Origin: a virus
Taxonomy: Duplodnaviria; Heunggongvirae; Uroviricota; Caudoviricetes
DNA: 4,112 nucleotides
IMG/VR virus record: IMGVR_UViG_2695420478_000009
Strand: one strand, 5' to 3'
Both the position numbers and the translations under genes were made by a program. Of the stretch, positions 1,096 to 3,985 are shown piece after piece (within the stretch, counting starts at the first letter, position 1; every line of letters starts with the position of its first letter). A model generated the notes under the pieces. The model saw only the letters and a program-made list of their open reading frames with translations. It was not told where the DNA came from and searched no databases.

Positions 1096-1461
1096 TCACA
1101 GTCCGATGATATCGTCTGCCCTGCCATGACCTCCGGACACCTCCGGCAGCGTCGGGTCCGGCATACCACTCGCCGTTTCACTGACTGACTTCTGGCGATG
1201 GCATTCGGTACAGAGCGTCCAGAGATTCGTCTCCTCATTACCACCACCGAACTGAAGTGCAATGCGGTGATCGAGTTCACTGTCACAGAGGTCAACCACA
1301 CGACCACAGAGACAGCACTGCCCGGCATCCCTGAGCCAGATATGACGCTTGAGGGAAACACGTGCACTGCCACTGACACGACGCTGTTCCCCCTTCAGAA
1401 TATTCACCCGTCGGGTGTTCAGAGTTTTGATTCTGCTCTGGAGTGTACGAAGCTCAGCCAT
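1096..1461 (-). CDS. Phage HNH endonuclease, 121 aa (copy 2, variant C-terminal tail)
   Basis: The first 92 residues are identical to copy 1 and the nucleotide differences there are all synonymous. The C-terminal 29 residues carry 5 replacements. Confidence 0.85.
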   Translation of the reverse strand: MAELRTLQSRIKTLNTRRVNILKGEQRRVSGSARVSLKRHIWLRDAGQCCLCGRVVDLCDSELDHRIALQFGGGNEETNLWTLCTECHRQKSVSETASGMPDPTLPEVSGGHGRADDIIGL

Positions 1462-1502: not shown

Positions 1503-1688
1503 ATGTCATCGAAAAACCGTACCCGCAGAACCACAACCCGCAATATCCGTTTCCCCAATCACATGATTGAACAGATCAACATCGCCCTTGAGCATAAAGG
1601 GTCCAGTAACTTTTCAGCGTGGGTTATTGAAGCCTGCAGAAGAAGGCTGTCAACAGAGAGTTCGGGTATGAATTACATAATTAAGTAA
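1503..1688 (+). CDS. Small DUF3950-like protein, 61 aa (YlcI/YnfO-like, possible ribbon-helix-helix DNA binder)
   Basis: Strong SD (AAGGA) 8 nt upstream of ATG 1503. The protein MSSKNRTRRTTTRNIRFPNHMIEQINIALEHKGSSNFSAWVIEACRRRL matches my recollection of YlcI/YnfO from DLP12/Qin. It is divergent from the HNH gene with a 41-bp gap. Confidence 0.65.
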   Translation: MSSKNRTRRTTTRNIRFPNHMIEQINIALEHKGSSNFSAWVIEACRRRLSTESSGMNYIIK

Positions 1689-1820
1689 CATGGTGTTCAC
1701 AGAACACGCAGTTACCGGACACATCAGTTTTCCATTCGCTCCCCGGCAGTACAGGCTTCCCCTCTGACGGGATAGCCTGAAAAAATAACACAGAAAATTA
1801 TTTGTTATAATTAATATAAC

Positions 1821-1961
1821 TTACTCAAAAAAAAGCGACGAGAAAATCAGCATCAACGAACAATAAGCGCCAATACGTGATAACAAATGGCAGCCATATT
1901 TATCTGCAGTATAAGCAATGGACAGGATAACCACACCAGAAACCGTCAGCATAAAATCCAT
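1821..1961 (-). CDS. Candidate 46-aa hydrophobic small protein in the AT-rich island (MDFMLTVSGVVILSIAYTADKYGCHLLSRIGAYCSLMLIFSSLFFE)
   Basis: Hand-translated ORF ending in TAA, with a purine-rich GGGGAAG about 6 nt upstream of the ATG. No recognised homolog, and it is below the ORF-track size cutoff. Confidence 0.2.
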   Translation of the reverse strand: MDFMLTVSGVVILSIAYTADKYGCHLLSRIGAYCSLMLIFSSLFFE

Positions 1962-2311
1962 TTGAACTTCCCCGGACAAAATCGACTCATCTAAAGATTT
2001 ACAGCTCTTTTTATTATCAATATGTTAAAAGTAAAATAAACAGATGTTCAATAACACGAATACAAAAACGTGCTGAAATTCAATGAATCCATTTCTGTGT
2101 CATCAATTAATAGTGATAAACATCCGGCTTCTTCCACCATCGCACCGGACAGGCGACTATGAGGGGACAACGCCGCGCTCCGTTAACGCGGTAAACCCCG
2201 GTGTGTATCGTTTTTGATTATCCCCGCACACTCGCGCAGAGGAGTCTCCCTGTCGGGCTGCGGTCTCTGTTAATGAGGGAATACAGCGACGATACGGCGC
2301 ATCAACAAAAC

Positions 2312-2779
2312 TTATTTCAGGCACTGAGTGCGGATATAGTCCTGTGCCCCTTCCAGTTGCTTCTGCATTGTCATCAACCGCTCTCTGAGGGTGAAATAAT
2401 CCCGTTCAGCGGTGTCTGCCAGTCGGGGGCCGGTTGCATTATCCATTCCGGAGGTGCCGGTGGCTTCACGCACGGTACCGGAGCAGGTGGCGTTGATCCG
2501 CAGGCGCTTACGACCAGCGGCAACATCAGCACGCAGAGTTTCATTTTCAGCTCTCGCATCGGCTAATTCCCTCGAGTATTTTGCATCGAGCGCAGCAACA
2601 TCGCGCTGGCGCACCTGCATATCAGTAATGGTTGCATTTGCCAGCTCCAGCTCACTGACTTTTTTATCGCGCTGCTCTTTGTAGGTTATGGCGTTATCAC
2701 GGTAATGATTCAGCCCCAGACTAAGCGCACCACAGGCCACCAGCAGGGCAATGATGACCACGCACAGTACGCGGTTCAT
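2312..2779 (-). CDS. Rz: Rz i-spanin, 155 aa
   Basis: The protein from MNRVLCVVIIALLVACG... has an N-terminal TM segment followed by NHYRDNAITYK...DVAALDAKY...RLADTAERDYFTLRERL.TMQKQLEG, closely matching lambda Rz. Start taken at ATG 2779 because the track's 2803 start is a TTG. Confidence 0.9.
   Translation of the reverse strand: MNRVLCVVIIALLVACGALSLGLNHYRDNAITYKEQRDKKVSELELANATITDMQVRQRDVAALDAKYSRELADARAENETLRADVAAGRKRLRINATCSGTVREATGTSGMDNATGPRLADTAERDYFTLRERLMTMQKQLEGAQDYIRTQCLK
2374..2559 (-). CDS. Rz1: Rz1 o-spanin lipoprotein, embedded in the +1 frame of Rz
   Basis: MRELKMKLCVLMLPLVVSACGSTPP...CVKPPAPPEWIMQPAPDWQTPLNGIISPSESG has a lipobox (VSAC) and a proline-rich body, matching lambda Rz1. 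Confidence 0.85.
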   Translation of the reverse strand: MRELKMKLCVLMLPLVVSACGSTPPAPVPCVKPPAPPEWIMQPAPDWQTPLNGIISPSESG

Positions 2780-2780
2780 T

Positions 2781-2882
2781 TCACCACCAGCGTATCTGAC
2801 CAATGAAATAACCGGAAGCCATAATCACAAACACCAGCCAGATAAGGATGAACTTCCAGGTGGATAATTTTTCAGCCATCAT
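2781..2882 (-). CDS. Candidate 33-aa single-pass membrane protein (MMAEKLSTWKFILIWLVFVIMASGYFIGQIRWW) between the endolysin and Rz
   Basis: GGGAG SD 6 nt upstream of ATG 2882. Its TGA stop lies 1 nt before the Rz ATG (TGAAATG). The longer 72-aa version in the track starts at a GTG inside the terminator hairpin. Confidence 0.35.
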   Translation of the reverse strand: MMAEKLSTWKFILIWLVFVIMASGYFIGQIRWW

Positions 2883-2954
2883 TCGAATCTCCCGAATCAG
2901 TTTGCTAAAATCAAACACACTTTCTCCTTTGACTTTTCCGGAGTCAGGAAACAC

Positions 2955-2987
2955 AAAACCCCGCTTGCGGCCAACAAACGGGGTTTT
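2955..2987 (-). terminator. Bidirectional rho-independent terminator hairpin between the endolysin and the downstream small ORF/Rz
   Basis: AAAACCCCGCTTG / CAAACGGGGTTTT forms a 13-bp stem with one mismatch and a 7-nt loop, flanked by an A-run and a T-run so that a U-tract follows on either strand. Confidence 0.6.
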
Positions 2988-3076
2988 ACTTTTATTCACT
3001 TAGTTTTTGCCAGTTCGCAGGATTTCGTGTTATCCGCCCGTGTGAGCAAACCGCATTTTTCAGCAAAATATTCTGC

Positions 3077-3610
3077 TTATCTGTCAATTCCCCAGCACGC
3101 CAGCGCGCTCTCCTGGTCACGACGGGATACCTGACCGTAACAGTTGTTTGAACGAATACGGCAGTCTCTGCCACCGTCCTTAATCCACCAGCGAATCGCT
3201 TCGCAGGCACCTTTTCGATCACCTGCATTAATTCGTCTGTAAAACGTAGACGGGAAACACTTACCGGGACCAATGTTGTACGGACAGAATGACGCAATAC
3301 CCGCTTTCTGGGGTTCGGTCAGTGGCACTCTGATGTTTTTCGCCACCCATGCCAGCGCCTTATCACGTTCAATGGCGTTAACCTGGTCGCATTTTTCCTT
3401 CGACAACTTCATGCCCGGGAGGACAGGCTTACCATCCACCCGGGTGGCTCCACGGCAGATGGTCCAGATACCCGCACCATCACGGTATGCCGTGGTGTGG
3501 TTACCTTCCTTTTCATCCAGAAACTGGTCGAGGATTTCAGGCGCAGGCGCACCTGCGGCAATCAGCGCCAGAACGGCAGCCGACAGGCCGTATTTGATTT
3601 TGGTGTTCAT
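3077..3610 (-). CDS. SAR endolysin, 177 aa (T4-lysozyme-like muramidase, RrrQ-type)
   Basis: Gly/Ala-rich N-terminal signal-anchor (YGLSAAVLALIAAGAPAP) followed by a catalytic triad with E-x8-D-x5-T spacing (EGNHTTAYRDGAGIWT). The 177-aa length and sequence match my recollection of the Qin lysozyme. Confidence 0.9.
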   Translation of the reverse strand: MNTKIKYGLSAAVLALIAAGAPAPEILDQFLDEKEGNHTTAYRDGAGIWTICRGATRVDGKPVLPGMKLSKEKCDQVNAIERDKALAWVAKNIRVPLTEPQKAGIASFCPYNIGPGKCFPSTFYRRINAGDRKGACEAIRWWIKDGGRDCRIRSNNCYGQVSRRDQESALACWGIDR

Positions 3611-3652: not shown

Positions 3653-3985
3653 TTAAGTCTTCAGAGAACCAGTAATTATTCCCGGTAGTTTTCCTCTGTA
3701 GATTATCAACACATCCTGCGCCTCTAAAATGATGGGCCGCTTTTCCGGCAACGGACCATCCCCTTCACATAACCCGGCAGCAACATCCATGAAAAACTGC
3801 TTCGCCTGCTTTTTCGCCTCAGCTTCGTAAAACTCCAGCGTGGCACCTTCAGTACGGTCAAGACTAATCGCCACATCTGGCAACAACAGTGACGGATACC
3901 CACCAATTTCCAGTGCCACAGTAACAGTAATCTTATCCGGGTAATTATTTATCCCTTTAACAACCAGTTCGTATTTTTTCTTCAT
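3653..3985 (-). CDS. ydfR: YdfR-like DUF1327 protein, 110 aa, unknown function, sitting between holin and endolysin
   Basis: The ATG lies 4 nt after the holin stop with a GGGAGAG SD. The protein has no TM segment or signal peptide. The holin-ydfR-lysozyme order matches the Qin prophage as I recall it. Confidence 0.7.
   Translation of the reverse strand: MKKKYELVVKGINNYPDKITVTVALEIGGYPSLLLPDVAISLDRTEGATLEFYEAEAKKQAKQFFMDVAAGLCEGDGPLPEKRPIILEAQDVLIIYRGKLPGIITGSLKT

Follow-up and report, generated by a model that had tools for sequence, protein, structure and literature searches.

A probable moron-like cassette with a predicted small membrane-protein gene between the lysis and packaging genes of Escherichia coli lambdoid prophages

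The present study analyzes the gap between the Rz spanin gene and a ylcI/ynfO-family gene in the late region of a lambdoid Escherichia coli prophage, represented by IMG/VR virus record IMGVR_UViG_2695420478_000009. The whole stretch of DNA analyzed, 4,112 nucleotides in which the minus strand encodes the lysis genes, is referred to here as the window. The features of the gap, taken together, are probably best explained by a moron-like cassette of E. coli prophages that carries one real gene for a small membrane protein, expressed in the lysogen and also from the late transcript. On sequence evidence the gap is a composite of two parts, an AT-rich cassette that also reaches into the end of ylcI, and a conserved linker of normal composition next to Rz. 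Judged by its pattern of substitutions, the 46-codon open reading frame (ORF) in the cassette is a real gene that is conserved, under purifying selection and already annotated, and its product is predicted to be a two-helix hairpin in the inner membrane.

Conservation and expression of the 46-codon reading frame

A sequence-only reading of the window had singled out a hydrophobic minus-strand ORF of 46 codons, and this ORF is present as described, with a grand average of hydropathy (GRAVY) of 1.11. Given with its stop, it reads MDFMLTVSGVVILSIAYTADKYGCHLLSRIGAYCSLMLIFSSLFFE. The product is identical to ECs_1538 (NP_309565.1; UniRef A0A066T8Z3_ECOLX) of prophage Sp6 in E. coli O157:H7 Sakai, where the context is the same (Rz, linker, ORF, ylcI, HNH, terS) and the annotation is “hypothetical protein”; the annotation pipeline PGAP calls the same ORF as WP_000347013.1 in O104:H4 and EDL933. 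Conservation was assessed in 87 copies collected from IMG/VR and other loci and in two diverged lineages. The ORF was intact in 87/87 copies, apart from slippage in a T run at the last codon, and it was also intact in the diverged lineages, represented by L007 at 95% and by SHP24/L095 at 83% nucleotide identity. The L007-like protein allele is MDFM(Q/L)TVSGVVILFIAYTADKYGYHLLSRIGAYCSVMLIFSSLFFD, and the second, here type B, is MGLMLT(I/V)AGVIVLFIACNADKYGYPLLSRIGAYCALILIFSSLFF(E), found in SHP24 (WP_000523825.1) and L095/L096 (P0018). The ATG and a central ADKYG..LLSRIGAYC motif survive the 17% nucleotide divergence between the window and type B. Variants with eight or nine T in the run at the 3′ end are common among copies, with proteins ending ...FFE, ...FF or ...FFFLSKLY before the stop, and this homopolymer could be a slippage-prone site.

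Patterns of substitution are those of a coding sequence read in this frame. Of 37 changes, 19 were synonymous against 11.1 expected under a spectrum-matched null (P = 0.004), and none introduced a stop, which together with the synonymous excess has a joint probability of 0.0014. Replacements were mostly V/I, S/A and M/I, and hydrophobicity was kept (P = 0.013). The other five reading frames had no synonymous excess (P 0.12–0.98). Two ORFs just downstream, the equivalents of XECs147 and XECs148 of Sakai, served as an internal control and were broken in both diverged lineages.

Sequences that may drive expression lie immediately upstream. The Shine-Dalgarno-like sequence and the GATAAT hexamer some 50 nt upstream that had been pointed out from the letters alone were both found, GGGGAAG at 5 nt and GATAAT at 52 nt from the ATG, with GAGGAAG in O157 and GGGGAAC in SHP24 as variants of the former. 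GATAAT lies within a 35-nt block, GTTTATTTTACTTTTAACATATTGATAATAAAAAG, that covers the −35 to +1 interval to be expected for a GATAAT promoter. The window and SHP24 do not differ at any position of this block, and L007 and L095/L096 each have no more than one change in it; in the adjacent non-coding DNA the identity of the window to SHP24 is about 72%. Over the whole alignment of these two sequences, identity is 96% in the linker, 72% at 2040–2121, 86% at 1990–2039 where the promoter-like block is located, 71% in the 5′ untranslated region, 83% in the ORF and 69% downstream of it. We infer from these features that the ORF may have its own promoter. The block is nevertheless a candidate for serving the ORF strand, the opposite strand, or both. 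The sole promoter call by a standard scan within 1500–2500, TTTACA-17-TATGTT (9/12), overlaps it on the plus strand and is directed at the linker and Rz, opposite to the late genes; in type B its −35 reads ATTACA.

Expression of the identical Sakai gene can be read from the supplementary tables of Hücker et al. 2017 (PMC5597208), in which ECs1538 is among the 250 shortest annotated Sakai genes with a ribosome coverage value (RCV) of at least 0.25 in lysogeny broth (LB). In uninduced Sakai in LB the gene had 57.6 reads per kilobase per million (RPKM) of RNA and 26.1 RPKM of footprints, an RCV of 0.46 and a coverage of 0.98 (PMC5597208 S2), values that pass those authors' Ribo-seq thresholds. 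In brain heart infusion (BHI) the control values were 32.7 RPKM of RNA, 7.3 RPKM of footprints, RCV 0.23 and coverage 0.81, and under BHI stress they were 2.1, 0.6, 0.29 and 0.13, respectively (PMC5597208). RNA values in LB were 8.4 RPKM for the holin gene ECs1530, 10.1 for ECs1536, 3.0 for ECs1537 and 45.6 for ylcI (ECs1539), which places ECs1538 6- to 19-fold above the neighboring late genes, a comparison between a single-copy island and neighbors that are multi-copy in O157. The same source gives a Shine-Dalgarno sequence 4 bp upstream with dG −3.6 (PMC5597208 S4), a promoter predicted by BPROM with an LDF of 8, no terminator, and a machine-learning call of “real” (PMC5597208). The BPROM promoter falls on CATATTGATAAT in Sakai, in agreement with the conservation profile above. 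The small membrane peptide suggested by the sequence-only reading is thus conserved under selection, annotated, and in Sakai both transcribed and covered by ribosomes (PMC5597208 S2); that reading would have been given up had the region been silent and the ORF not conserved, and instead RNA is present in Sakai and the ORF is kept in three lineages. Full-text searches for ECs1538, WP_000347013 or the peptide string gave no hit in the main text of any paper of the literature collection searched, the gene appearing only in the supplementary tables of PMC5597208, and there was no ECs1538 entry in the supplements of an EDL933 Ribo-seq study (PMC5331693).

Equivalents of XECs147 (54 aa) and XECs148 (35 aa; ORF 1681–1791 of the window) lie at 1656–1817 on the minus strand. 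Both were reported as novel translated intergenic ORFs of Sakai by Hücker et al. 2017, and the promoter distance stated for them lands on CATATTGATAAT in Sakai (PMC5597208). Their footprints are more likely to come from the ECs1538 transcript, at its 3′ end, than from genuine genes. Such a transcript would extend antisense into the 3′ end of ylcI.

The cassette, its exchange slot and the linker

The gap had been delimited from the sequence by the stops of Rz and of the ylcI-like gene, and these limits are exact, with ylcI ending at 1688 and Rz at 2312. It likewise holds no ORF of normal size, as had been stated; its largest ORFs are 52–55 aa and none exceeds 55 codons. The content of guanine and cytosine (GC) is 0.335–0.36 across 1801–2100 in 200-bp windows, against about 0.5 in the flanks, and the AT-rich stretch given as roughly 1780–2110 has 31.4% GC compared with 51.6% in the remaining window. 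The whole gap had been headed as an AT-rich island, but the island covers only approximately 1655–2121; 2122–2311 is ordinary conserved lambdoid linker.

Boundaries of the cassette were defined by aligning the window with prophages of O104:H4, EDL933 and strains DS566-2, ZH193 and ST130 and with phage PPyecE_EH1910. DS566-2 and ZH193 share both flanks and lack the cassette, and in them a slightly longer ylcI directly adjoins the linker. In alignment with these empty-site prophages the cassette is a presence/absence module that also replaces the last codons of ylcI: where the island is present ylcI ends ...STESSGMNYIIK, and where the site is empty the C-terminus is longer and different. Because the C-termini differ in this way, one boundary of the cassette is placed inside ylcI, at 1655–1688, with approximately the last 11 codons rewritten. 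In the L007/L008 lineage homology covers 1711–2121 only and is followed by a different packaging module.

The island was found in 734/5426 complete E. coli genomes (13.5%), nearly always in single copy and with 97–100% identity among copies, apart from one lineage at 81%. Carriers include the pathogen lineages O157:H7, O104:H4, O55:H7 and O111. A distant blastn search found it in 2/50,697 phage records, both of them E. coli prophages, and on no plasmid. The tblastn comparison of the 46-aa peptide that had been suggested as a check took the form of a tblastn-confirmed scan of 185,579 species-representative genomes (GTDB), none of which had it, and no species other than E. coli was found to carry the cassette. 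A search for inverted or direct repeats fitting a mobile element or a trans-acting antitoxin gave only matches of 10–13 nt, at chance level. Comparison with related prophages, which had also been suggested, brought out presence or absence of the cassette and retention of the ORF in diverged lineages.

The interval from the last lysis gene to ylcI/ynfO is a variable slot, which may be empty, hold ybcV/ybcW as in DLP12, or hold the small genes of Qin. A moron, in the sense in which Juhala et al. are said to have used the term in 2000, is an extra gene, missing at the same place in close relatives, with deviant composition, its own promoter active in the repressed prophage and its own terminator. 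DS566-2 and ZH193 lack the cassette, DLP12 and Qin have different genes in its place, and the 31.4% GC of the cassette departs from the 51.6% around it. By these features the island is, as far as sequence can tell, a moron-like cassette of approximately 410–470 bp, restricted to lambdoid prophages of E. coli. The proposal that it occupies the moron slot downstream of Rz, as does bor in lambda, stands for the variable slot, which is empty or differently filled in relatives, and fails for bor, which lies on the Rz side of the linker.

The linker is 95–100% identical across E. coli prophages with differing flanks and terminase types, and it occurs in 1891/5426 complete E. coli genomes and in many Shiga toxin (Stx) phages. 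It is homologous to approximately 46.86–47.03 kb of lambda, between a ybcV-like gene and bor, and the DLP12-type order is nohD, ylcI, ybcW, ybcV, linker, bor, rzpD. Flanked by variable gene slots on both sides, it may act as a recombination joint. A 55-aa ORF with a GTG start, 2157–2324 on the minus strand, overlaps the Rz stop and the linker and matches phrog_6954, “Rz-like spanin” (E = 1.4e-16); it was rejected as coding because polymorphic sites of the linker among the 87 copies are spread over codon positions at 13:14:9, with no bias, and because PGAP does not call it. The phrog_6954 label probably comes from over-annotated ORFs. RNA structure in the linker was not supported by RNAalifold (covariation terms +0.83 and −1.01 on the two strands); one compensatory pair was seen in EC22, in a CCGG...CCGG stem.

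Coordinates of all features are collected in Table 1. Two further observations were made outside the gap. The 72-aa ORF in the endolysin-Rz interval has a hydrophobic C-terminal segment, WKFILIWLVFVIMASGYFIG, and would be a second small membrane protein within the lysis cassette; the ORFs that RefSeq has at the corresponding position are shorter. At the other end, two imperfect copies in tandem, repeating every 822–824 bp or so, make up 1–1548 (1–725 corresponds to 823–1548 at 94–98% identity); this duplication yields the two HNH genes, whose proteins differ near the C-terminus, and a truncated ylcI start (from 679) fused to sequence that is normally upstream, towards terS. Both copies map to one locus of about 985 bp in the best 15 complete E. 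coli genome matches listed, and since those genomes have a single locus the duplication is taken to be rare, recombinational or a product of assembly.

Table 1. Features of the 4,112-nucleotide window
Feature	Position	Strand	Basis or remark
HNH endonuclease genes	272-637, 1096-1461		left of ylcI/ynfO
ylcI/ynfO-family gene (DUF3950), left flank	1503-1688	+	convergent with late genes; Pfam/NCBIfam
AT-rich cassette, 36% GC	~1655-2121		empty-site alignment, composition, genome counts
Gap, ylcI stop to Rz stop	1689-2311 (623 bp)		ORF list and flanking-gene Pfam/NCBIfam matches
Perfect extended -10 TGTTATAAT, candidate antisense promoter	1803-1811	+	10 nt past ORF stop, facing ORF
46-aa ORF	1821-1961	-	ATG at 1961, stop 1821-1823; WP_000347013.1, ECs_1538
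T8 run, 3′ end of ORF	1827-1834	-	copy comparison
Shine-Dalgarno-like GGGGAAG	1967-1973	-	5 nt before ATG
TTTACA-17-TATGTT, promoter call	1998-2026	+	standard scan
35-nt block, candidate promoter	2007-2041	-	holds GATAAT at 2018-2013
TTGAAC-18-TAACAT, overlapping candidate promoter	2051-2022	-	
Conserved lambdoid linker, normal GC	2122-2300 (~180 bp)		alignments, genome counts
Rz spanin gene (PF03245), right flank	2312-2782	-	end of lysis cassette; Rz1 embedded at 2374-2559
72-aa ORF, endolysin-Rz interval	2781-2999	-	phrog_6632 match, E = 1.8e-29, function unknown
Lysozyme gene	3077-3610	-	
DUF1327/YdfR gene	3653-3985	-	
Class II holin fragment		-	in window

Alternative explanations

Several points weigh against reading the island as a moron-like cassette with a functional membrane-protein gene. 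Downstream of the ORF there is no intrinsic terminator but just a weak hairpin at 1707–1693, and for this reason the cassette is not a textbook moron; an AT-rich hairpin after the ORF stop is deleted in L007. Both minus-strand promoter candidates score 8/12 and are not called by the standard scan, and the Shine-Dalgarno sequence is degraded to GGGTTAC in L095/L096. The contrast in expression between ECs1538 and its neighbors is possibly inflated by the multiple copies of the latter in O157, an RCV of 0.46 is modest, and some footprints are possible without productive translation. ORF length is no evidence by itself: when the island was shuffled with dinucleotides preserved, 46% of the shuffles contained an ATG-initiated ORF of 46 aa or more, and in hydrophobicity the ORF ranks only within the top 5% of shuffled ORFs. 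The selection test draws on 37 events only, a few of them possibly recombinational or counted twice, and the L007 branch alone has 5 replacement and 2 silent changes. The protein has no match in Pfam, NCBIfam, PHROG or PADLOC; no relatives beyond E. coli were found in a word-indexed search of 5.8 billion proteins with the single sequence and a profile, and phmmer over 1.84 billion representatives returned only the protein itself and low-complexity noise. With neither a homologue outside E. coli nor a family match, any assigned function is a guess, and the AlphaFold model described below was built on an alignment of 4 sequences.

An alternative explanation could be that the peptide is a late product, encoded by the last gene behind Rz/Rz1 and made mostly through Q antitermination, which would tune lysis as a partner of holin or antiholin or as a depolarizer and have no action in the lysogen. 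This would account for an ORF that is co-oriented with and directly downstream of the holin, endolysin and Rz genes in every context observed, including three packaging modules, with no terminator between the late genes and the ORF, and for a peptide predicted to have two membrane helices. It would not account for prophages that have the same lysis genes without the cassette, from which it follows that the cassette is dispensable for lysis, nor for the 6- to 19-fold excess of RNA over the (multi-copy) late neighbors in uninduced cells or the conserved promoter-like block directly upstream of the ORF. Resemblance to a holin or antiholin is also lacking in detail: there is no holin-family match, the C-terminus (...SSLFFE) is not the charged tail typical of holins, the gene comes only after Rz and a 190-bp linker, and a class II holin fragment is already present. 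We consider this role in lysis unlikely.

It is also conceivable, at low probability, that the island is AT-rich filler left by recombination, in which a chance ORF in T-rich DNA is called by gene finders and receives light pervasive transcription and translation. The frequency of ORFs of this length in shuffles and the predominance of replacements on the L007 branch, both given above, would fit, as would the tendency of T-rich strands to give hydrophobic ORFs, the orphan status of the sequence, and the fact that the non-conserved neighbors XECs147 and XECs148 were called translated as well (PMC5597208). What chance would not readily produce is a synonymous excess specific to one frame (P = 0.004) with no stop among 37 changes, a start codon, loop motif and hydrophobicity kept at 83% nucleotide identity while neighboring chance ORFs were broken over the same divergence, and Ribo-seq coverage of 98% of the ORF.

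A type I toxin-antitoxin system, in which the peptide would damage membranes and an antisense RNA from TGTTATAAT would repress it, in the service of prophage stabilization or abortive infection, is similarly improbable. The peptide is of the right kind (46 aa, thus under 60 aa, GRAVY 1.11, two predicted helices), ECs1538 expression is low, and the analogous slot of Qin holds GnsA/GnsB, “addiction module toxin”. Moreover TGTTATAAT is the sole match to TGNTATAAT in the window, where 0.12 would be expected by chance, and it is retained in 84/87 copies, all of the common lineage. However, the antisense −10 has become TATGAC in type B and is deleted in L007, while the ORF is kept in both, so that no conserved antisense antitoxin was found, nor was a fitting direct repeat or a terminator for the antisense RNA, and the region is without unusual RNA structure. 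No Hok, Ldr, Ibs, TisB, ShoB, Zor or DinQ match was obtained from Pfam or NCBIfam, and neither PADLOC nor the 1.84 billion representatives placed the protein in a known toxin family. In the majority of known type I toxins of E. coli there is one helix rather than two, and the ORF is translated in growing cells without obvious harm (PMC5597208).

Least probable is that the island is a small regulatory RNA (sRNA), trans-acting or derived from a 3′ untranslated region, with the ORF incidental, a possibility that the sequence-only reading had raised and that is not borne out: lambdoid prophages of pathogenic E. coli do hold many sRNAs at moron sites (PMC4104026; bioRxiv 10.64898/2026.05.13.724894), the region is transcribed (PMC5597208) and the promoter-like block is conserved, but nothing in the window matched Rfam 15 at E ≤ 1, although Rfam includes AgvB, AsxR, Esr41 and STnc100, the structure search proposed with that reading found that island and linker fold no better than shuffles on either strand (minimum free energy z-scores −0.68, −0.56 and 0.0), there is no terminator hairpin on the relevant strands, substitutions follow codons, known prophage sRNAs of enterohaemorrhagic and enteropathogenic E. 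coli are found close to PR′ and Q on the upstream side of the holin gene (PMC4104026; bioRxiv 10.64898/2026.05.13.724894), and the supplements of PMC4104026 list no Hfq-bound RNA for ECs1536, ECs1538, ECs1539 or the locus coordinates. The sRNAs svsR and Pas are also located at other sites.

The predicted protein and its relation to known systems

Returning to the moron-like cassette with a membrane-protein gene, AlphaFold predicts a helix at residues 2–21, a turn at Y22–C24 and a second helix at 25–44, with a mean predicted local distance difference test (pLDDT) of 85, from the 4-sequence alignment. TMSEG likewise gives ECs1538 two transmembrane helices and an inner-membrane location (PMC5597208 S9). 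Foldseek against BFVD found generic helical hairpins only, all at E ≥ 0.55. The loop is basic (K21 and R29, with DKYG..LLSR conserved) and the termini are acidic, which under the positive-inside rule suggests that the loop is cytoplasmic and the two ends are periplasmic.

In lytic growth the gene, co-oriented with the lysis and late genes, would form the final part of the late transcript. In uninduced lysogens a putative sigma-70-type promoter within the 35-nt block would give low-level expression, and expression is thus probably low in the lysogen and renewed on the late transcript. The peptide would then reside in the inner membrane of the lysogen, where our best guess is a small modulator of a host membrane protein or of an incoming phage; action as an RNA or as a lysis enzyme is less favored. 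It is possible, at rather long odds, that the peptide founds an E. coli-specific family of prophage membrane effectors, as a new type I-like toxin held in check in the common lineage by a convergent antisense RNA from TGTTATAAT, or as an inner-membrane blocker of superinfection or a modulator of a host transporter or sensor in pathogenic lineages such as O157:H7, O104:H4, O55:H7 and O111.

ECs_1538/WP_000347013.1 is the same gene, identical over its 46 aa and in its context, with no difference. Genes of Qin (cspI, ymcF, ynfR, ynfN, gnsB and ydfO) and DLP12 (ybcV and ybcW) occupy the same slot from Rz to ynfO/ylcI and are mostly small and co-oriented with the lysis genes, but they have no sequence similarity to the ORF and encode cold-shock-like, DUF1398 and Gns proteins rather than a two-helix peptide. 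Lambda bor is likewise an accessory gene between Rz and the packaging genes, and it reportedly encodes a lipoprotein moron expressed from the prophage in lysogens, as credited to Barondess and Beckwith. It differs in lying on the opposite strand and on the Rz side of the linker in both lambda and DLP12, while the island is on the other side, and in encoding a 97-aa lipoprotein, whereas the 46-aa protein has no lipobox (no L-x-x-C), no homology to Bor and no Pfam match. Hok, Ldr, TisB, Ibs, ShoB, ZorO, DinQ and the two-helix GhoT are also short hydrophobic peptides of the inner membrane, some of them prophage-borne; the 46-aa ORF differs from these type I toxins and GhoT in having no family match, a candidate antisense promoter that is not conserved and no partner gene. 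MgrB, AcrZ, SgrT and the prophage protein DicB are of similar size, and MgrB and AcrZ are inner-membrane proteins. Small regulators of this type exert their effect through binding to larger membrane proteins. The prophage gene for DicB gives protection against phage (PMC6832061). The likeness to these regulators is one of kind only, an analogy with no homology to the 46-aa protein behind it.

The gene is already known, annotated since the Sakai genome and listed as translated in the 2017 ribosome-profiling study (PMC5597208), and for that reason the finding alone is of little weight. What it adds is a clear example of an orphan small membrane protein that is confined to one species and under measurable purifying selection, located in a defined lambdoid exchange slot. 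Should the peptide turn out to be a toxin or exclusion factor, it would join the other small prophage proteins that affect host physiology.

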